From: an uncultured Thermoleophilia bacterium
GTDB lineage: Bacteria > Actinomycetota > Thermoleophilia > UBA2241
Assembly (NCBI GenBank): GCA_963747935.1
Contig: CAVVGY010000006.1
Location: 30,443 to 94,442, forward strand
Reading direction: 5' to 3'
DNA length: 64,000 nt
The notes beneath the pieces are model-generated. The model was given only the letters and a program-made list of their open reading frames with translations, was not told where the DNA came from and ran no database searches. A program made the translations under genes and the position numbers. Of this stretch, positions 29,299-42,137 are shown piece after piece. How positions within the stretch are numbered: the stretch's first letter is position 1; each line of letters opens with the position of its first letter.

Positions 29299-29302
<4 letters not shown>
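28874..29302 (+). CDS. Hsp20/alpha-crystallin small heat-shock protein
   Basis: PAADAY, LVVRGER, YGPFERRVRL, ATYEAGILEV. Confidence 0.88.
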
Positions 29303-31941
<2,639 letters not shown>

Positions 31942-33085: not shown

Positions 33086-33101
33086 TCATCCGGCCGGATG
33101 A
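33086..33101. promoter_or_regulatory. Putative TetR operator TCATCC-GGCC-GGATGA
   Basis: Perfect palindrome just downstream of -10-like TAGACT (33070-33075) before tetR. Confidence 0.6.
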
Positions 33102-33178
33102 ATCCCGGCGAGTCCCGCCGGGGCGCCGGTCATGTCCTGAGGGGTCGTCCTGTGGCTGTCCGCCGACCGCTCGTCGTC

Positions 33179-33766
33179 GTGGAAACGACGGTCGAGCCGC
33201 TGAATCCTACGGCGCAGCGCATCCTCGAGGCCGCCAAGGAACTGCTGGCCCAGAAGGGGTTCTCCGCGCTCACGCTCGAGGCCATCGCGGCTGAGGCCGG
33301 CGTCAACAAGGCGGCGACGCGGTACCACTTCGGCAGCAAGGCTGGGCTGCTCGAGGCGCTCGTCGACGAGATCGTGCTCGATGAGTGCGCGTCCATGGCG
33401 CACGACCTCACCGGCGAGCCCACCCTCGACGAGCGCCTGGACAGCTTCTTCCGGAGCGTGCGCCGCATCGCGGTCGAGCCTGCCACGTTCGGTGGGTTCT
33501 TCGACGTCCTCCCACACGCTCTGCGCGACAAGGCGCTGCGCAAGCGCCTCGTGTACCTCTACGAGGTCTGGTACCAGTGGAACGCCGAGTGGCTGGACCT
33601 CGACGCGCTCGACGACGAGCGCAGGGAGGCGCTCGCCGGGTTGGGCCGGCTCGCAGCGGCCACTATCGACGGCATCGCCATCCAGAGTTCGATCCACGGC
33701 GCCGCCTACGACCCGGAGCCGACGCTGCGGGCCTTCCGGTTCTGTCTGGAGTCCGTGCTCCGCTGA
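33179..33766 (+). CDS. TetR/AcrR-family regulator (start uncertain; ORF opens at 33098)
   Basis: RILEAAKELLAQKGFSALTLEAIAAEAGVNKAATRYHFGSKAGLL HTH. Confidence 0.9.
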   Translation: METTVEPLNPTAQRILEAAKELLAQKGFSALTLEAIAAEAGVNKAATRYHFGSKAGLLEALVDEIVLDECASMAHDLTGEPTLDERLDSFFRSVRRIAVEPATFGGFFDVLPHALRDKALRKRLVYLYEVWYQWNAEWLDLDALDDERREALAGLGRLAAATIDGIAIQSSIHGAAYDPEPTLRAFRFCLESVLR

Positions 33767-33814
33767 GCGCACCTCCGGTGCGGTACGCCCGCGCAGGACC
33801 TTCGATCCCCAGCC

Positions 33815-33876
33815 TTGTCATGGTCACCTGCCTGTGCTAGCGTGCGTCCCGCGATTCATCCCTCCGGATGGATGAA
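33815..33876 (+). promoter_or_regulatory. Sigma70-type promoter plus second TCATCC/GGATG operator
   Basis: TTGTCA (33815-33820)-N17-TAGCGT (33838-33843); TTCATCC-CTCCGGAT-GGATGAA at 33855-33876. Confidence 0.65.
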
Positions 33877-33993
33877 ACTCGACTCGTTGCCAGGGGGCGA
33901 TGAAGGAGGTCTCGCACAGGCACACGGCGTTGACGCGGCGGGTGCGACCCGCCGCGGTGTCAGTCGTCATCTACTGACAAGGGGGACCCTGCC

Positions 33994-34176
33994 ATGCCAA
34001 CAGATGAAGAGATCGTCCATCTCAAGAGCGAGCTCGCGGCGCGACTGGAACTCGTGAACAGCGACCCGGAGTACGAGGGGAAGCCGGCGACCGCGCGCGA
34101 CCAGATCATCCTCGCAGTGGTCGGGCTCGTCGTCCCGGCGATCATGATGATCGGGGGGTGGTTGATCTATGCCTGA
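33994..34176 (+). CDS. 60-aa single-TM protein overlapping the permease start
   Basis: SD AAGGGGG, C-terminal hydrophobic helix, stop overlaps next ATG. Confidence 0.7.
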   Translation: MPTDEEIVHLKSELAARLELVNSDPEYEGKPATARDQIILAVVGLVVPAIMMIGGWLIYA

Positions 34177-35665
34177 CGCACCGAGCAGCATGGAGCGGTC
34201 GGCCATCCGCGAAGCGGCGGAGGGCAGCTGGCCGGTCCTGCCGGGAGAACGCAACTGGGGACTCGTCGGGATCTTCGCGGTCACGATCTCGGCCGGTATC
34301 GCCGCGTGGAGCTACTCCATCGGCGGCGCGGTGTCCTGGTACCTGACCGCCGGCCTGGGGACCATCGCCATGATCGCCGGGTCCCTGGTGGGCATGTACT
34401 TCGTCACGGCGGCGGCGATGCCGGTGAGCGTCAAGTACGGCATCGACACCATCGCCGCCTGCAAGCCGCAGTACGGCACCAAGGGATCCGTGTTCGGGAT
34501 CTTCGCGCAGTACGCCTCGATCGTGGGGTGGAACTGCATCCTGATCATCTTGTTCGGCCGCGCCGCCGCCAACGTGCTCGCGGCCGGCGGCGTCATCGGC
34601 GAGGACTGGGTGTACCGCGTGTCGGTGATCCTCTCGCTCGTCACGATCGCCTACGTGTTCTACCTGGTCATCGGAGGCGCGGATTCCGTCCGCAACAACT
34701 CGATCTGGATCGCCGTGGCCGTCGTGATCGCCGGCCTGGTGGTGCTCTTCAGGCTGCTCACCCAGGTCGGCTGGGACACGATCGCGGCTGGCGAGCCCGC
34801 CTACGCGTCCGGCGACCTGCACCTCGACTACACGCTCGGCTTCGAGATCCTCGTCGCGACCGTGCTCTCGTGGTGGCCCTACATGGGCGGGATCATGCGC
34901 ATGAGCAAGAGCGTGAAGCAGGCCCTGCTGCCCTCGATGATCTGCCTCGGCATGATCACCGGAGTCATCGGGCTCATCGGGCTGTACGCCGGACTCGCGA
35001 CCGGCGATCCCGACCCGTCCATCTCGTTCGTCAAGGTCACCGGCCTGTGGATGGGCATCGTCGCGGTCGTCTTCATCGCCCTGGCCAACATCGGCACCGC
35101 GATCGTCGGCGTGTACGCCACCGGCATCGGGCTCAAGCAGATCCCCGCGCTGCAGTACCGCCTCAACTGGAAGTGGACGACCGTCATCGTGCTCGCGCCG
35201 GTAGCGATCATCGCGGCGTTCGTGCCCAACTGGTTCATGGACCACAGCCTCACCTACATGTACTTCCTCGGCCTGGTGTTCGCGCCCATCTGCGGCATCC
35301 AGATCGCGGACTACTACTTCTTCCGGCACCAGCGGCTCGACATGGTCTCGCTGTTCGACTACACGCCCGCGAGCCGTTATCACTTCTGGGGCGGCTTCAA
35401 CCCGGCCGCGTTCGTCGCCACGGCCGTCGGCTTCTTCGTCTATTGGTACCTGCTGGACCCGGTCACCTACGTCAGTCACAACGCGACCGCGTTCAAGTGG
35501 ATCAGCGCGTCGATCCCGTCGCTGCTCTCCGCGGCGGTGGTCTACGGCGTTCTCACCGCGCTCGTCATCAAGCCGCTGCGCAAGGGCGGGTACGAGCGCG
35601 TCCAGGCGCCGGTCTCCGTGCCCGCCGCCGCGGTGATGGAGACCGCGGGGAAGGCGGGCGAATGA
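34169..35665 (+). CDS. NCS1 / cytosine-purine permease family transporter
   Basis: About 12 TM segments, KYGI...YGTKGS, APICGIQIADYY, GGFNP motifs. Confidence 0.85.
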   Translation: MPDAPSSMERSAIREAAEGSWPVLPGERNWGLVGIFAVTISAGIAAWSYSIGGAVSWYLTAGLGTIAMIAGSLVGMYFVTAAAMPVSVKYGIDTIAACKPQYGTKGSVFGIFAQYASIVGWNCILIILFGRAAANVLAAGGVIGEDWVYRVSVILSLVTIAYVFYLVIGGADSVRNNSIWIAVAVVIAGLVVLFRLLTQVGWDTIAAGEPAYASGDLHLDYTLGFEILVATVLSWWPYMGGIMRMSKSVKQALLPSMICLGMITGVIGLIGLYAGLATGDPDPSISFVKVTGLWMGIVAVVFIALANIGTAIVGVYATGIGLKQIPALQYRLNWKWTTVIVLAPVAIIAAFVPNWFMDHSLTYMYFLGLVFAPICGIQIADYYFFRHQRLDMVSLFDYTPASRYHFWGGFNPAAFVATAVGFFVYWYLLDPVTYVSHNATAFKWISASIPSLLSAAVVYGVLTALVIKPLRKGGYERVQAPVSVPAAAVMETAGKAGE

Positions 35666-37077
35666 GCGACATCCTGACCCGCATGGGCGACGGCTACAGC
35701 GTGGAGCTGACGCTCGAGGAACTCCGCGAGGACATCGTCACCGGCTCGGCGGACGCTGCCCGCAAGGGCAAGATCCCCGTCCTCGAGAACGACGAGGTCG
35801 ACTACCTGGTCGAGATGTTCGCCAGCCCCACGCGCATCTGGGGGGTCGAGCGCGGGCACGAGGCGGTCCTGACCAAGGACGGCTCGACCAACTCGCTGTA
35901 CTCGGCGCAGCTCTCCTCGGGTGTCGGCCTGCCGCTCTCCCGCGAGCAGGCGTTCCGCACGTTCGAGCGGGCCTTCGGCTTCGACACCATGGAGGTCGGC
36001 CACTTCGACTACTCGGTCAAGCCGGCCAAGCCCATCGTCACCCTGGAGCAGACCAACGTCGAAGGCGTGCTCCACAACTGCATCATCCCGGTCTATTACG
36101 GCTTCATGCCGAACCTGGGTCTGTACTACCGGCCCGACGGGCAGTTCCCCAACCCGTCCGACCTGATGCCCAAGGGCCAGATCGCCGAGGCCAGGGCGGC
36201 GACCGAGGAGGCCTTGGTGGCCTGCCGGGACGACGTGATCTGGATGACCGGCAAGATGGCCGAGGTCGGCGTGGACGGCATCAACTACGACACCACCGCC
36301 TCCACGGGCGACGGCGAGTTCCTCGCCACGCTCGAGGCGGTCGAGTGGACGGCCAAGAACACCGACGTCTCCATCGAGGTGGGCATGGCGGCGGAGTGCG
36401 TGCTCGGCTTCCACGGGCAGCTCACCTACGACGGCGAGCGTCTCGCGGGGATGTGGCCGCACCAGCAACTGAAGGTGGTGGAGAAGGCCGGGGCCCACGT
36501 GTTCGGGCCCGTGGTCAACACCAACACGCGCCGGAGCACGCCGTGGAACCTGGCGCGGGCGGTCACGTTCATCAAGGCCGTCAGCGCCGAGGCCACGATC
36601 CCCGTCCACGCCAACGTGGGCATGGGCGTGGGCGGCGTGCCGATGTTCGAGCTCCCGCCGGCCGACGTGGTCACGCGCTGCAGCGCGGCGATGATCATGA
36701 TCGGCAAGGTCGACGGCTTGTAGGTGGGCACAGGCGATCCCAGCGGGATGAGCCTTGCTCACGCGCTGGCTTCCTCGATGGGCGGCATCCGTACCACCGG
36801 AGATCTGGTGGCCCGGATGCAGATGACCCGCAAGATGAGGTTGCCGGAGGCGAAGCGGTTTGTGGCAGACAAGCTCGGCCTGAGCGTGAGGGACATCAGC
36901 GACTCGACGGTCATGCGGGGCGTGCGCGAGGAACTCGACATCGGCGTCATCACCGCCGTGCCGGGGCTTGCGCGCGGTCTCGAGGCCAAAGCGCGCATCG
37001 CGGACCTGCTCGGCATCACCATCAACAGCGTCGAGCGGCTCAAGCGCAAGATGGGCGCATCCGCCCTCAGTCGATGA
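35662..37077 (+). CDS. mtbB: Dimethylamine:corrinoid methyltransferase MtbB homolog with in-frame amber codon (36721-36723, residue 354; predicted pyrrolysine), 471 aa
   Basis: TRMGDG, DTMEVGHFDYSVKPAKP, YGFMPNLGLYYRPDG, VNTNT, GMGVGGVPM, KVDGL-TAG-VGTGDP, GGIRTTGDLVARMQ, REELDIG; both ORF-track halves are in the same frame. Confidence 0.92.
36724..36762 (+). promoter_or_regulatory. Candidate PYLIS-like stem-loop directly 3' of the amber codon
   Basis: GTGGGCA/TGCTCAC, AGGC/GCCT and ATCCC/GGGAT nested stems with AGC loop. Confidence 0.5.
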
Positions 37078-37120: not shown

Positions 37121-38626
37121 ATGGCAACTGTGGAGCCGACGACCGTAGGTCCATACCCGACGCCGTACGCCGCGCCGGCAGATCCACCCATGGACTACAA
37201 GATGTACATCGGCGGCGAGTGGGTCGAATCGGAGAGCGGCGAGCGCTTCGACGTCTGGTCTCCCGGCGATGGAAGTCGCATCGGTTCGGTGCCCAAGGGC
37301 ACTACCGCGGACGTCAAGAAGGCCATCGAGGCGGCCAAGAAGGCGCAGAAGGAGATGGCCGCTCTCTCCATCCCGGCGCGCGCCAAGCTGCTGTTCAAGG
37401 CCAGCGAGATCGCGTACCGGCGCCTCGAGCACGACGCACGCGTGCTCTGCCGCGAATGCGGCAAGACGATCACCGAGGCGCGCAGCGAGATCGAGGACTA
37501 CTCCGCGCCGCACTTCATCGAGGCGGCCGAGGGCATCAAGCGCTACCGCGGCAGGATCAACCCGTCCATCCAGGAAGACACGCTGAACAAGCGCATCCTG
37601 GTCATCCACCAGCCGATGGGCGTGATCGGCATCATCTCGCCGTGGAACTGGCCGCACGACATCCCCAACATCGCGCTCACCCATGCGCTGGCCGCCGGGG
37701 ACGCGGTCGTCATGAAGCCGGCGAGCACGACGCCGTTCAGCGCGCTCATGCTCGCCGAGATCATCGAGGAGGCGGGCTTCCCGAAGGGCGTCGTCAACAT
37801 CGTCACCGGTCCAGGCCCTGTGGTCGGGGAGGAATTGGTCAGCAATCCCGGCACGGCCGCCATCCACTTCACCGGCGAGACGGGCACCGGCGAGCGACTC
37901 ACGCAGATCGCCGGCGTCAAGCGGCTCATGCTCGAGCTCGGCGGCAACGGGCCGCTCGTGGTGTGGGACGACGCGAACATCGAGGAGGCCGTCGAGGCCA
38001 CCATCACCGGCTGCTTCTACCTCGCAGGCCAGGTTTGCACAGCGTCCGAGCGCATCCTCGTTCACGAGGCTGTGCACGACGAGTTCGTCGAGAAGCTGGT
38101 GGCGCGGGCGAAGAAGGTCAAGGTCGGTAATCCGCTCGACGAGGGCACCGACATGGGCCCGCTCAACAACCCGAGCAACGTGGCGAAGGTGCAGGCGCAC
38201 TTCGACGACGCGAAGCAACGCGGCGGCAAGTTCCTCATGGGCGGCACCATCGACGGCATGTACGCCGAGGTGACCGTCGTCGACGGCGTGACCTCGGACT
38301 TCCTCATGGCGCGCGACGAGACGTTCGGCCCCGTCGCGCCGATCATGACGTTCAAGGACATGGACGAGTGTCTGAGGATCGCCAACGAGACGCCCTACGG
38401 ACTCCAGGGAGCCGCCTTCACGAGCAGTCTGCGCACCGCCTTCCTGCTCGGCGAGGGCATCGAGTGCGGTACTGTGCTCATCAACGAGACGAACAACTGC
38501 TGGGACCAGCTCTCGCCGTTCGGCGGCGTCAAGAAGAGCGGCCTGGGGCGCGAGCTCAGCGACTGGTGCTTCGACGAGCTGACCGAGACCAAGCAGCTCA
38601 ACATCGACATCAGCAAGGTGAAGTGA
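37121..38626 (+). CDS. NAD(P)-dependent aldehyde dehydrogenase
   Basis: ISPWNWP, KPAS, FTGE.GTG, LELGGN, GQVCTAS, ETFGPV, PFGGVKKSGLGRE. Confidence 0.93.
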   Translation: MATVEPTTVGPYPTPYAAPADPPMDYKMYIGGEWVESESGERFDVWSPGDGSRIGSVPKGTTADVKKAIEAAKKAQKEMAALSIPARAKLLFKASEIAYRRLEHDARVLCRECGKTITEARSEIEDYSAPHFIEAAEGIKRYRGRINPSIQEDTLNKRILVIHQPMGVIGIISPWNWPHDIPNIALTHALAAGDAVVMKPASTTPFSALMLAEIIEEAGFPKGVVNIVTGPGPVVGEELVSNPGTAAIHFTGETGTGERLTQIAGVKRLMLELGGNGPLVVWDDANIEEAVEATITGCFYLAGQVCTASERILVHEAVHDEFVEKLVARAKKVKVGNPLDEGTDMGPLNNPSNVAKVQAHFDDAKQRGGKFLMGGTIDGMYAEVTVVDGVTSDFLMARDETFGPVAPIMTFKDMDECLRIANETPYGLQGAAFTSSLRTAFLLGEGIECGTVLINETNNCWDQLSPFGGVKKSGLGRELSDWCFDELTETKQLNIDISKVK

Positions 38627-38934
38627 CTCTGCGGTAGAAGGCCGGGAGGCAGGTCGGCAGGGCGGCCGGGGCGGGAGCCCCGGCCGCCCTGCCACGTTTG
38701 ACGCCCGTCGTCCGGTGGGCGCCGGTCCAGGGGGGATGCCGGGTGTCGCAGCGCTCCGTCACGCTTGCCTCGGCGGCCTCGCCTTCTATACGATATCGCT
38801 ATACCACGATGCGATATGTGAGGCCGGGTACGGGGCGATTGCCCGGCCTTCGCCGTCGTTCTACGATTGCGAATCTGTGGGAGCCTGTCCGTCCGTCCCG
38901 GGCGGGAGCTTGAACCTTGGAGGGGGTGCTCAAC

Positions 38935-39321
38935 GTGAGCGCACAAGAGCGCGAGACGGCCAACGTCGGCGCCGGGTTGTGGAAGGGCATCGGCATGTGG
39001 GCCTGGATCCTCTTCCGCATCAGCGGGCTGGTCCTGGCCGCCTACCTGTTCGTCCACATCTGGGTCATCTCCCAGGGTCGCGTGAGCGGCGCGGGGACGC
39101 TGAACAGCTTCTTCGAGACGTTCGACAAGCCGTTCCTGGTGTTCCTCGACTCGGTCCTCGTGGCCGCCGTGCTGTACCACGCGCTCAACGGCGTGCGCAT
39201 CCTGCTGATGGACTTCGGCATCGGCATCCAGCGTCACAAGGCCGTCTTCTGGATCTGCATGCTGATCGCCGCCGCGGCGGTGTGGGGGTTCGCCTACAAG
39301 GCCATCCCCCTCATCTTCTAG
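38935..39321 (+). CDS. sdhC: Succinate dehydrogenase cytochrome b subunit
   Basis: FRISGL, HIW, YHALNGVRILLMD; three TM. Confidence 0.88.
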   Translation: MSAQERETANVGAGLWKGIGMWAWILFRISGLVLAAYLFVHIWVISQGRVSGAGTLNSFFETFDKPFLVFLDSVLVAAVLYHALNGVRILLMDFGIGIQRHKAVFWICMLIAAAAVWGFAYKAIPLIF

Positions 39322-39331
39322 GGAGGGGAAC

Positions 39332-39694
39332 GTGAGGACCGAGACACTCGATCGCAGCGCCGGCGGGATGTGGCCCTGGCTGGGCCAGCGCGTCACCGCC
39401 GTTGTCATCCTCGTCACCATCATGGTCCACCTGGTGCTCACGCACTTCGTGGCCATCGGCCAGCTCAGCTACGAGAACATCGGCGAGCGGCTGGCCATGA
39501 CGGCCGTGCTCGTCAACGACGTGCTGCTGCTGGTGGCCGTCGTGTACCACGCCCTCAACGGGGTGCGCATGGTCGTGCTGGACTACGGATTCAAGGGCAC
39601 GGGCGCCCGTCGCGGGCTCGCCGTGTTCCTCTGGGTCGTCGGCATCATCGCTGTCGTCTACGGCATCTGGGCCCTCTGGGTCTGGGTGAGCTGA
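39332..39694 (+). CDS. sdhD: Succinate dehydrogenase membrane anchor
   Basis: WLGQRVTA, HLVLTH, YHALNGVRMVVLDY. Confidence 0.85.
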   Translation: MRTETLDRSAGGMWPWLGQRVTAVVILVTIMVHLVLTHFVAIGQLSYENIGERLAMTAVLVNDVLLLVAVVYHALNGVRMVVLDYGFKGTGARRGLAVFLWVVGIIAVVYGIWALWVWVS

Positions 39695-39705
39695 GGGGGA
39701 GAGGC

Positions 39706-41412
39706 ATGCCACACCATCAGCTGATCGTGGTCGGCGGCGGGCTCGCAGGGCTCCGCGCCGCCGTGGAGGCCAAGGCGGACGGGCTGGACGTGGCGGTCCT
39801 CAGCCAGGTCCACCCCGGCCGCAGCCACTCGAGCGCCGCGCAGGGCGGCATCAACGCGGCGCTGGCCAACCACCCGGACGCCCACGACGACACGCCCGAG
39901 AAGCACGCCTTCGACACGGTCAAGGGCTCGGACTACCTGGCCGACCAGGACACCGCCATCCAGATGACCAAGGACGCCCCCGGCGTCATCTTCGAGATGG
40001 ACCACTGGGGCTGCCCGTTCAGCCGCTTCGACGACGGGCGCATCGCCCAGCGGCCGTTCGGCGGCGCCGGGTACCCGCGCACCTGCTACGGCGCCGACAA
40101 GACCGGCCACTACCTGCTGCACACGCTGGTCGAGCGCGCCTACGAGCGTCAGGTCAAGATGTACATCGAGGTCTTCGTCACCTCGCTCATCGTCGACGAC
40201 GGTCGCTGCCGCGGCGTCGTCGCCTACGACATGATCAAGGGCGGGTTCCACGCCTTCACGGCCGACGCCGTGGTCATGGCCACGGGCGGCGCCGGCCGCA
40301 TCTACGGCAACTCCACCAACGCCATCATCAGCACCGGCGCCGGCGCGGCCATGGCCTACCAGGCCGGAGTGCCCGCGGAGGACATGGAGTTCATCCAGTT
40401 CCACCCCACGGGCCTGCTCACCTCGCACATCCTCATGAGCGAGGCGTGCCGGGGCGAGGGCGGCTACCTCGTCAACGGCGAGGGCGAGCGCTTCATGGCC
40501 AGGTACGCGCCCAAGGCCATGGAGCTGGCGCCGCGCGACATCACCGCGCGCTCCATCACCACGGAGATCAACGAGGGCCGCGGCATCGGCGGAGCCGACT
40601 ACGTGAACCTCGACCTGCGGCACCTCGGCGCCGAGAAGATCCTCGAGCGGCTGCCCGGCATCCGCGACATCGCCATCCACTTCGAGGGCGTCGACCCCAT
40701 CGAGGAGCCCATCCCGATCCGCCCGGTCCAGCACTACACCATGGGCGGCATCGACACCGACGTGGACGGGCGCACGAGGCTCCTGGGCCTCTACGCGGCC
40801 GGCGAGTGCGCCTGCGTCAGCGTGCACGGCGCCAACCGGCTCGGCGGCAACTCGCTGCTCGAGACCGTCGTCTTCGGGCGGCGCGCCGGCATGGCCGTCG
40901 TGGCCGACCTCGAGGGCGGAGCCTCCGCCGGCGATCCCACGCCGGCCGCGGCCGGCGCCGTCACGGCCATGGAAGCGCGCGTCAAGGAGCTTGCGGCGCG
41001 CGGCGCGGACGGGGCCGACCCGTACGCCATCCGCGCCGAGATGATCGCCACCACGCGCGACTACTTCGGCGTGTTCCGCGAGGACAGCGTCATGCGCACA
41101 GGTCTCGAGACCCTGCGCCGGCTCAAGGAGCGCTGCAGCAAGATCGGTCTGCGCAACGCCGGCGGCGTGTTCAACCTCGACCTCATGCGCACGCTCGAGC
41201 TCGAGGGCATGGTCGACCTCTCCCTGTGCGTCGCCGAGGGCGCCCTCGCACGCACCGAGTCGCGCGGGTCGCACTCACGCACCGACTTCCCGGCGCGCGA
41301 TGACGAGCAGTGGCTCAAGCACACGCTCGCGTACTACACCCCGGAGGGGCCGCGGCTCGAGTACGCGCCCGTCACCCTCGGTCCCTTCGAGCCACAGGAG
41401 CGGAAGTACTGA
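39706..41412 (+). CDS. sdhA: Succinate dehydrogenase/fumarate reductase flavoprotein
   Basis: GGGLAG, RSHSSAAQGG, QFHPTG, HYTMGG, HGANRLGGNSL, ESRGSH. Confidence 0.95.
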   Translation: MPHHQLIVVGGGLAGLRAAVEAKADGLDVAVLSQVHPGRSHSSAAQGGINAALANHPDAHDDTPEKHAFDTVKGSDYLADQDTAIQMTKDAPGVIFEMDHWGCPFSRFDDGRIAQRPFGGAGYPRTCYGADKTGHYLLHTLVERAYERQVKMYIEVFVTSLIVDDGRCRGVVAYDMIKGGFHAFTADAVVMATGGAGRIYGNSTNAIISTGAGAAMAYQAGVPAEDMEFIQFHPTGLLTSHILMSEACRGEGGYLVNGEGERFMARYAPKAMELAPRDITARSITTEINEGRGIGGADYVNLDLRHLGAEKILERLPGIRDIAIHFEGVDPIEEPIPIRPVQHYTMGGIDTDVDGRTRLLGLYAAGECACVSVHGANRLGGNSLLETVVFGRRAGMAVVADLEGGASAGDPTPAAAGAVTAMEARVKELAARGADGADPYAIRAEMIATTRDYFGVFREDSVMRTGLETLRRLKERCSKIGLRNAGGVFNLDLMRTLELEGMVDLSLCVAEGALARTESRGSHSRTDFPARDDEQWLKHTLAYYTPEGPRLEYAPVTLGPFEPQERKY

Positions 41413-42137
41413 TGCGCACCGTCAACTTCCACATCAAGCGCTACGACCCGGCGCGCGACGAGAAGGGCAGCTCGCGCGTCCAGCAGTACGAGGTCCCGTA
41501 CGAGACGAGCCTCACCGTCCTCGAGGGCCTCTTCTACATCCAGGAGCAGCTCGACGGCTCGCTCTCGTTCCGCTACTGCTGCCGTGCATCCATTTGCGGC
41601 TCGTGCGCCATGTACATCAACGGCCGCTACCGGCTGGCCTGCCAGACCAACGTCCTGCACCTGCACACCGAAGAGGTGCACATCGAGCCGCTGCCGCACA
41701 TGCCGCTCGTCAAGGACCTGGTCTGCGACATGGACGACTTCTTCACCAAGTACGAGTACATCCAGCCGTGGCTGATCCGCCACAGCCAGGAGCCGGCGAA
41801 GGAGATCCTGCAGTCGCCGGCCGACCGCCACAAGCTCAACATGCCCATCGACTGCATCCTGTGCGGCGCCTGCTACAGCAGCTGCCCGTCGGTGTGGGGC
41901 GAGGACAACTACATCGGGCCCGCGGCGCTGCTCAAGGCGTACCGGTTCGAGGTCGACTCGCGCGACGAGGCCAAGAAGGAGCGCATGCCGCGCTGGGACA
42001 ACGAGCGCGGGGCCTACCGCTGCCACACCATCACCAACTGCATCGAGGCCTGCCCGAAGGAGCTGAACCCGACGGAGGGCATCCAGTGGCTCAAGATGGC
42101 GGCCGTGCGACGGAGGCTGTTCGGCAAGTCCAAGTGA
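41412..42137 (+). CDS. sdhB: Succinate dehydrogenase iron-sulfur subunit
   Basis: CRASICGSC, CILCGACYSSCP, CHTITNCIEACPK. Confidence 0.95.
   Translation: MRTVNFHIKRYDPARDEKGSSRVQQYEVPYETSLTVLEGLFYIQEQLDGSLSFRYCCRASICGSCAMYINGRYRLACQTNVLHLHTEEVHIEPLPHMPLVKDLVCDMDDFFTKYEYIQPWLIRHSQEPAKEILQSPADRHKLNMPIDCILCGACYSSCPSVWGEDNYIGPAALLKAYRFEVDSRDEAKKERMPRWDNERGAYRCHTITNCIEACPKELNPTEGIQWLKMAAVRRRLFGKSK

Follow-up and report, generated by a model that had tools for sequence, protein, structure and literature searches.

The locus described here raises the question of whether a gene cut by an in-frame TAG is a broken gene, or one in which the TAG is read as an amino acid. No addition to the genetic code is rarer than pyrrolysine, which in bacteria has been linked to a small number of anaerobic Firmicutes and Deltaproteobacteria. 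The gene in question, mtbB, lies in a stretch of 64,000 nucleotides (the window; positions 30,443 to 94,442 of contig CAVVGY010000006.1, assembly GCA_963747935.1) from an uncultured Thermoleophilia bacterium with a G+C-rich genome. Our analysis indicates that this mtbB, from a soil or wetland actinobacterium, is intact and that its in-frame TAG almost certainly encodes pyrrolysine. More specifically, the sequence evidence makes it highly probable that positions 35662-37077 (numbered within the window, as are all positions given without a contig name) encode a functional dimethylamine:corrinoid methyltransferase, MtbB, of this uncultured Thermoleophilia bacterium, with the UAG at codon 354 read as pyrrolysine.

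Mechanical calling of open reading frames (ORFs) cuts mtbB into two. The preliminary description of this DNA had placed both halves in one frame, forming a protein of 471 residues with the TAG at codon 354, and this was confirmed in every detail. The frame contains a single internal stop, the TAG at 36721-36723, in the translated context KVDGL*VGTGDP, and its ATG start (35662-35664) shares the letters ATGA with the TGA of the upstream permease ORF. The proposed relationship to MtbB was also borne out, as the read-through protein matches Pfam family PF09505 (Dimeth_Pyl) with 633 bits over profile positions 4-462 of 463, and the NCBIfam equivalog TIGR02368 over its full length with 541 bits at a cut-off of 369. 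By these scores, the family match is far beyond chance. Against four orthologues, the ratio of nonsynonymous to synonymous substitution rates (dN/dS) was 0.18-0.27 after the TAG compared with 0.11-0.21 before it, and identity to orthologues after the TAG is as high as before it. Judged by these rates, the part of mtbB beyond the TAG is under purifying selection. Host-like codon usage upstream of the TAG, another point of the preliminary description, holds as well: the G+C content at third codon positions (GC3) is 0.977 before the TAG and 0.981 in lon, with neighbouring genes at 0.92-0.98, while the post-TAG part (36724-37074) reaches 0.855.

The position of the TAG is conserved within the genome and far outside it. 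A family-model search of the contigs found eight copies of mtbB, each with exactly one in-frame TAG, and the motif DG[LY]-TAG-[VI]GxGD is present in all eight even though the paralogs are only 46-69% identical to the window copy. Eleven orthologous loci from other public assemblies were translated through the TAG; one of these (L046) ended after 69 codons in the frame used and was dropped, and in all 10 readable orthologues the TAG falls in a single alignment column. Among these ten are records from a Syntrophomonadaceae (49% identity) and from an archaeon (46%), the latter with its TAG at codon 356. In a wider set, 76 of 82 loci carry the single motif TAG and no further stop, and the remaining six show an extra stop or, in L104, a frame problem. 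When all frames were scanned, the motif TAG was found in 89/89 loci, a set that takes in the seven other paralogs of the genome. The TAG also coincides with the UAG at positions 1-3 of the Rfam model of the mtbB pyrrolysine insertion sequence (PYLIS), and it occupies one alignment column with the TAG of bacterial and archaeal orthologues; the compared loci included no Methanosarcina protein, and the equivalence is drawn via the Rfam model and the archaeal orthologue.

Independent sequencing agrees with the assembly at this site. Contigs X1 and X4, from two DNA runs of different studies, cross the TAG (36622-36839 and 36680-36826, respectively) with no differences. The runs contained at most 28% of the sampled words of the stretch and the source sample was not among them, which makes depth and coverage gaps meaningless. 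A contig of a soil RNA library, X20, crosses the TAG with 14 differences, and none of the 11 that are listed falls on the TAG. Among 8000 candidate public proteins scored, 1549 were relatives at E ≤1e-20, and the best 120 of these 1549 measure 292-356 residues and cover at most 75% of the query. The short length of these database relatives (at most 356 residues) implies that gene callers cut them at the TAG.

The genome that contains the window is a bin of 3.24 Mb in 17 contigs, with 70% G+C, 84.6% completeness and 2.7% contamination. The pyrrolysine genes were sought in it, and pylSc, pylSn, pylB, pylC, pylD (frameshifted) and a tRNA with anticodon CUA were all found, on contig C5 (Table 1). 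The tRNA was called by ARAGORN with a 6-bp anticodon stem, a 3-nt variable loop and a small D arm, features that we take to be hallmarks of tRNA-Pyl; the Rfam search of the same locus (L047) at gathering threshold did not call it. Further along C5, at 237-242 kb, lie another mtbB, a corrinoid gene and a TAG-bearing mttB. Thus, the pyl cassette and genes that use pyrrolysine are physically linked in this genome, though the window itself belongs to contig C6. We also observed that one radical S-adenosylmethionine (SAM) gene, one corrinoid protein gene and one SAM-dependent methyltransferase gene occupy the interval between pylSn and pylSc (C5 23776-26347, or L047 8776-11347), where they are unusual passengers. 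Separately, ARAGORN called a tRNA-Sec (anticodon TCA) at C8 81551-81648, so that selenocysteine may be encoded alongside pyrrolysine in this genome, a combination described for some Deltaproteobacteria. In the mechanism that we propose, pyrrolysine would be made by PylB, PylC and PylD, charged by PylSn together with PylSc, and delivered by tRNA-Pyl(CUA), and the charged tRNA would compete with release factor 1 (RF1) at the UAG of mtbB.

Release factor 1 is present in the genome (493 bits, cut-off 423). Among 1832 crude long coding-like ORFs, 1418 stop at TGA, 346 (18.9%) at TAG and 68 at TAA, and several genes of the window, such as lon, end in TAG. With RF1 kept and TAG ending about a fifth of the ORFs, UAG is still a stop codon, and it therefore has two meanings here. 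In Acetohalobium arabaticum, the pyl genes are expressed only with trimethylamine (PMC11467909; here and below, articles given by such identifiers are cited from partial text). By analogy, the ambiguity of UAG is probably tolerated in our organism through pyl expression that is confined to periods of methylamine use. A crude genome-wide screen for coding-like sequence that continues in frame after a TAG returned 46 candidates. The 33 candidates beyond mtbB and mttB seem, judged by nearby start codons, to be adjacent genes and not pyrrolysine genes, as an ATG, GTG or TTG occurs within nine codons in 26 of them.

An RNA element inside the coding sequence may bear on how the two meanings are told apart. 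The mtbB of the window matches the Rfam family PYLIS_2 (RF02509), which was built from the 100 nt that start at the UAG of mtbB genes (PMC3639795), and all eight mtbB copies of the genome give such a match; much of the score may come from conserved coding sequence. We aligned the 105 nt from the TAG onwards of 88 distinct sequences, free of gaps, and RNAalifold retained only one hairpin, at columns 74-91, which equals the 3' stem of the Rfam model. In this hairpin, the pair formed by columns 75/90 is CG in 52 sequences, UG in 10, GC in 9, UA in 8, AU in 3 and GU in 1, and the pair 78/87 is CG in 56, UG in 22 and GC in 9; all of these covarying columns are third codon positions. The paired fraction of hairpin cells is 98.1%, as opposed to 91.3% in shuffles, and 30 cells are changed on both sides, as opposed to 5.0 (0/500 shuffles reach the observed value in either case), with the structure derived from the same 88 related sequences that test it. 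When the partner was slid by one to three columns, at most 56% of cells paired. Covariation of the hairpin is thus supported by this alignment. In at least 90% of the 88 sequences, the glycine codon at columns 79-81 is GGA. Genomes rich in G+C usually prefer GGC or GGG for glycine. Together with the drop of GC3 after the TAG, this codon suggests a constraint on the RNA sequence, and it is possible that the hairpin favours pyrrolysine insertion.

A structure predicted from a 33-row alignment (mean predicted local distance difference test score 84.1, predicted template modelling score 0.88) is a beta/alpha (TIM) barrel of eight strand-helix units, with residue 354 on the predicted last strand of the barrel (E352-355). 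A PDB sequence search with the read-through protein gave no match and hence no solved MtbB structure. In a wider VIA search, the top solved matches were the MetH barrel (Z 18.6, root-mean-square deviation 3.7, 253 residues aligned), a Methanosarcina mazei corrinoid methyltransferase (4ay7, Z 17.4) and BHMT (Z 16.9), with unrelated or generic barrels at Z 13-15. Foldseek returned only generic TIM barrels, with template modelling scores of 0.3-0.6. MtmB and MttB were not among the 50 VIA structure rows, which is uninformative either way. In the known system, MtbB methylates MtbC with dimethylamine, passing the methyl group to the Co(I) corrinoid of its cognate protein (PMC9842639), and the amber codon of Methanosarcina barkeri mtbB is translated as pyrrolysine (PMC9842639, PMC11467909).

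Corrinoid proteins and RamA-type activators were sought in the genome, and both were found. There are about a dozen small corrinoid proteins, one of them encoded directly after the mtbB copy on C5, two RamA-like activator genes, five MT2-like genes of the URO-D family beside corrinoid genes, and an acetyl-CoA synthase gene (C10 124727-125191). The MtbB barrel, with pyrrolysine on its last strand, would accordingly pass the methyl group of dimethylamine to a Co(I) corrinoid protein encoded elsewhere in the genome, while RamA-like activators would keep the corrinoid cofactor reduced and the methyl group would enter one-carbon metabolism, for which acetyl-CoA synthase and the MT2-like methyltransferases are present. 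The genome also carries five full-length mttB genes with one TAG each. Together with the eight mtbB genes, these would mark the organism as a methylamine specialist. A further 34 MttB-family rows lack a TAG, with a TGA in one of them; about 17 rows are near full length, and the others are fragments of split genes. This very large expansion of the non-pyrrolysine branch of MttB, the quaternary amine type, is spread over many contigs. We also observed an MtmB-family gene beside a corrinoid gene (C3 57881-59243; L032/L033) that has no in-frame TAG and changes from one frame to another near position 150 of the hidden Markov model; this gene may be broken, may be an MtmB homologue of the non-pyrrolysine kind, or may be both at once.

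The genes around mtbB are summarized in Table 1. No NCBIfam equivalog reaches its cut-off for the aldehyde dehydrogenase. Of 13 related loci, five (L035, L036, L038, L040 and L041) have a homologue of the TetR-family regulator upstream of mtbB, and this looks to be the only conserved linkage; the TetR protein may regulate the mtbB unit. The sdhC gene follows mtbB in 2/13 loci. The permease and the aldehyde dehydrogenase were considered as conserved partners of mtbB and rejected, each being linked in a single locus of the 13 (the permease downstream in L036, the aldehyde dehydrogenase upstream in L038). A promoter scan between the TetR gene and the permease found none, and an Rfam search of the spacer between them gave no match. 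The same spacer holds several inverted repeats, such as one whose two 19-nt arms, 33964-33982 and 33992-34010, show 74% complementarity, and it is possible that these are operator sites. Two terminator-like sites inside mtbB were rejected, being on the wrong strand and not in excess of what shuffles give.

Table 1. Features of the mtbB locus in the window and of the pyrrolysine cassette on contig C5 of the same bin.
Feature	Position	Strand	Remarks
lon	29299-31941		
DUF6498 gene	between lon and TetR gene		
TetR-family regulator	33098-33766	+	Pfam TetR_N, 59 bits
400-nt spacer	33767-34168		between TetR gene and permease
NCS1-type permease	34169-35665	+	Pfam Transp_cyt_pur, 58 bits; NCBIfam NCS1/CytX below cut-offs
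mtbB, read through TAG	35662-37077	+	one frame, 471 codons and TGA stop
mtbB codons 1-353, before TAG	35662-36720	+	GC3 0.977; dN/dS 0.11-0.21 (four orthologues)
Proposed pyrrolysine codon 354, TAG	36721-36723	+	aligned to UAG, positions 1-3 of Rfam RF02509
mtbB codons 355-471 and TGA, after TAG	36724-37077	+	same frame; family models reach position 462 of 463
Rfam PYLIS_2 (RF02509) match	36721-36820	+	58.5 bits, gathering score 36; model positions 1-100
7-bp hairpin with AGAU loop	36794-36811	+	inside coding sequence, 70 nt after TAG; RNAalifold consensus
Aldehyde dehydrogenase	37121-38626	+	44 nt downstream of mtbB; Pfam Aldedh, 501 bits
sdhCDAB	38917-42137		downstream of aldehyde dehydrogenase
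pylB	C5 19025-20083		441.8 bits, cut-off 348
pylC	C5 20088-21329		328.7 bits summed, cut-off 248
pylD	C5 21329-22133 (L047 6329-7133)		two frames, 139.6 and 39.7 bits, cut-off 150
tRNA-Pyl(CUA)	C5 22166-22238		ARAGORN; directly after pylD
pylSn	C5 23385-23714		TIGR03912, 128.5 bits, cut-off 51
Corrinoid protein gene	C5, between pylSn and pylSc		
pylSc	C5 26340-27065	opposite	TIGR02367, 320 bits, cut-off 178

Other explanations of the in-frame TAG have to be weighed against its decoding as pyrrolysine. One alternative is that the gene is decaying or mis-assembled and that its TAG, arising by nonsense mutation or sequencing error, is never read through; this would account for the way standard gene calling divides mtbB and for the products of 353 residues that public protein sets list. 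However, the TAG stands at the same place in all 89 loci from many assemblies and in all eight paralogs, contigs of two other runs repeat it without a difference, the sequence downstream of it is under purifying selection, and the genome holds the full decoding apparatus. The relatives show neither sense codons nor scattered stops at this site, and the explanation is already contradicted; we regard it as extremely improbable. The opposite extreme, in which the organism reads every TAG as pyrrolysine, has a precedent in the full reassignment reported for some archaea (Kivenson et al. 2025, as cited in PMC13695967) and would agree with the complete pyl system and the many pyrrolysine genes of this genome. 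It has hardly any probability here, as RF1 scores above its cut-off, TAG ends 346 of the 1832 crude long ORFs, and the 33 other candidates with sequence in frame after a TAG resemble adjacent genes.

Several observations count against pyrrolysine decoding of mtbB, or against its assignment to this enzyme, and the most serious of them is pylD. Compared with five congeners, the gene has one additional base that breaks its frame, each piece stays below the family cut-off, and the strain as assembled would be unable to complete pyrrolysine synthesis. Within the bin, the window belongs to contig C6 and the pyl cassette to contig C5. X20, the sole RNA contig over the TAG, belongs to a relative, and three of its differences are not listed. 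The 5' stem of PYLIS_2 is not formed in the window, where nine columns are marked as non-standard pairs, and the importance of any PYLIS element for insertion is described as unsettled (PMC3639795). The MtbB of Methanosarcina is specific for its own corrinoid partner (PMC9842639), and no corrinoid protein gene was found on the contig of the window. The pylD frameshift is the main caveat for pyrrolysine decoding in this very strain, and it may be either an assembly indel or a true lesion. In the latter case, the UAG would end a dead product of 353 residues, or pyrrolysine or a precursor would be taken from neighbours, and the 13 TAG-bearing genes would be starting to decay. The extra base does not lie within a long homopolymer, and the assembly likewise breaks an mtmB-like gene, several genes of the MttB family, a corrinoid gene, one of the RamA-like genes and a second copy of COX1 between frames, which can be taken as signs of such a loss. 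These many split genes fit scattered assembly indels equally well, though, and the pylD of all five congeners tested is intact. Moreover, pylB, pylC, pylT, pylSn and pylSc are whole, the eight mtbB and five TAG-bearing mttB genes are otherwise unbroken, and selection on the post-TAG part is seen against close relatives. An assembly indel is plausible, and we consider a true loss in the strain quite improbable. A different doubt concerns the substrate: the enzyme could use pyrrolysine and act on another secondary or N-methylated amine in place of dimethylamine. The paralogs, at 46-69% identity to the window copy, form at least two deep groups; the window copy has an orthologue group of its own (8 rows, support 99), often with TetR upstream (5/13 loci); and its contig is without a corrinoid gene, while a permease and an aldehyde dehydrogenase adjoin it. 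We nevertheless think another substrate unlikely, as the protein lies far above the cut-off of TIGR02368, the dimethylamine methyltransferase equivalog, and the neighbourhood is not conserved, with permease and aldehyde dehydrogenase each linked in 1/13 loci. To our knowledge, no substrate other than dimethylamine is known for the MtbB family.

The gene that we interpret as a pyrrolysine-encoding mtbB resembles characterized systems in its core and differs from them in its setting. MtbB1-3 of M. barkeri belong to the same family (PF09505/TIGR02368), are similar in length, have one UAG at the equivalent place and share the 3' hairpin of the Rfam model. In contrast, the host here is a bacterium, the pyrrolysyl-tRNA synthetase (PylRS) is split into pylSn and pylSc, and no corrinoid gene is adjacent. 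The methyl group would likewise have no route to coenzyme M and methane, and the acetyl-CoA synthase and MT2-like genes suggest a folate-linked one-carbon metabolism instead. MtbB proteins of Thermincola, Peptococcaceae and Desulfobacterales show 55-60% identity, their genes carry the TAG motif and the hairpin as well, and they fall in the apparent sister group of the actinobacterial clade in the MtbB tree described below. A split PylRS and an ambiguous UAG have been described in the Firmicutes and Desulfobacterota that use pyrrolysine (PMC9630628, PMC11467909). Compared with those, the present genome belongs to another phylum, has 70% G+C and a haem-copper oxidase gene, and holds a much higher number of copies (eight mtbB and five TAG-bearing mttB).

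The preliminary description had proposed that an Actinomycetota-like organism decodes UAG as pyrrolysine, outside the groups mainly known for it. The decoding is supported, whereas its novelty for the phylum is not, as Guo et al. (2022) report that 81 bacterial genomes, including those of two Actinobacteria, have PylRS (PMC9630628), and Ellenbogen et al. [quoted passage not shown] An orthologue in a record of isolate bog_752 is 77-78% identical to the protein of the window. In the excerpted text, these two articles give one sentence each to the subject, and mention no pyl cassette, tRNA-Pyl, copy numbers, spread in the class, RF1 or TAG usage, or hairpin. Beyond these, literature searches for pyrrolysine together with Thermoleophilia, Actinomycetota or RBG-16-64-13 brought up no other report on the subject, judged by title and start of abstract among the matches listed, and those that combined mttB, mtbB or dimethylamine methyltransferase with Thermoleophilia found none among the matches listed. 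As far as these searches reach, the family-wide spread, the size of the pyrrolysine gene set, the retained RF1 with ordinary TAG usage, the covarying hairpin and the co-occurrence with an oxidase appear to be undescribed.

Neighbouring housekeeping genes place the window in Thermoleophilia, Actinomycetota, in agreement with the suspected phylum. Most of the nearest relatives of lon (81-97% identity, 11 loci) carry the title Thermoleophilia, followed at 60-67% by relatives that are mainly Solirubrobacterales, cultured Solirubrobacter among them. Orthologues of mtbB are closest (91-92%) in Thermoleophilia MAGs in which lon or sdhC lies alongside. Of 24 further genomes of the genus, drawn as relatives, 23 have a PylSc above its cut-off. 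In a class-wide sample of 400 genomes (threshold for PylSc E ≤1e-40), it was found in 72/79 members of the family, including 43/48 of the genus, with nine further genera positive, as well as in 9/61 of a second family and 0/260 of ten other families. A phylum-wide sample gave one positive among 400 genomes, a member of the second family. The MtbB tree (FastTree only, midpoint root, with the frame-damaged L104 as a long branch) groups 66 of 90 rows in one clade with support 98, which is actinobacterial except for two rows. This clade holds the window copy and two paralogs, and the five other paralogs lie outside both it and its apparent sister, a group of 15 rows in the same polytomy made up of Firmicutes, Desulfobacterota and one Actinomycetota record. 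The two exceptional rows, L074 and L081, both labelled 'Deltaproteobacteria bacterium isolate MAG248', nest deep in the actinobacterial clade beside Thermoleophilia rows, which could mean that the bin is mislabelled or mixed, or that a transfer took place recently.

The relation of these genes to oxygen also deserves attention. Known encoders of pyrrolysine are described as anaerobes (PMC9630628). The present genome contains a full-length haem-copper oxidase subunit I (533 bits, C8 155705-157045), and succinate dehydrogenase genes lie within the window. The oxidase was found in three of five congeners checked, the two most complete being without it, and in one of the three, G012, it shares a contig with pylSc. 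This co-occurrence of oxidase and pyrrolysine genes is noteworthy, while saying nothing on their simultaneous use. Members of the family carry up to 13 pyrrolysine methyltransferase genes. We tentatively raise a broader possibility, about which we are more doubtful than confident: this uncultured soil and wetland family of Thermoleophilia, with PylSc in 72 of its 79 sampled species-level genomes as compared with the 81 bacterial genomes of the 2022 survey, could be the largest pyrrolysine-encoding clade of bacteria, its pyrrolysine-dependent breakdown of methylamines could extend beyond strict anaerobes, and the hairpin could be a true insertion signal.

With these findings, pyrrolysine emerges as a trait shared across a family of high-G+C actinobacteria, a lineage often met in metagenomes from soils and wetlands, and one genome has thirteen TAG-bearing methyltransferase genes. 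Gene callers truncate these genes at the TAG, and the methylamine metabolism of these bacteria is thereby hidden from standard annotation. The retained RF1, the ordinary usage of TAG and the covarying hairpin offer a natural system for studying one codon with two meanings, and if the proposed role of the hairpin is true, it would let UAG mean pyrrolysine here and stop elsewhere. The split PylRS and tRNA-Pyl pairs of an actinobacterium with 70% G+C could also interest engineers of code expansion. Finally, methylotrophic methanogens would face competition from these bacteria for di- and trimethylamine, and if the pyrrolysine-dependent breakdown of methylamines does extend beyond strict anaerobes, it could draw methylamines away from methanogens in oxic-anoxic soils.

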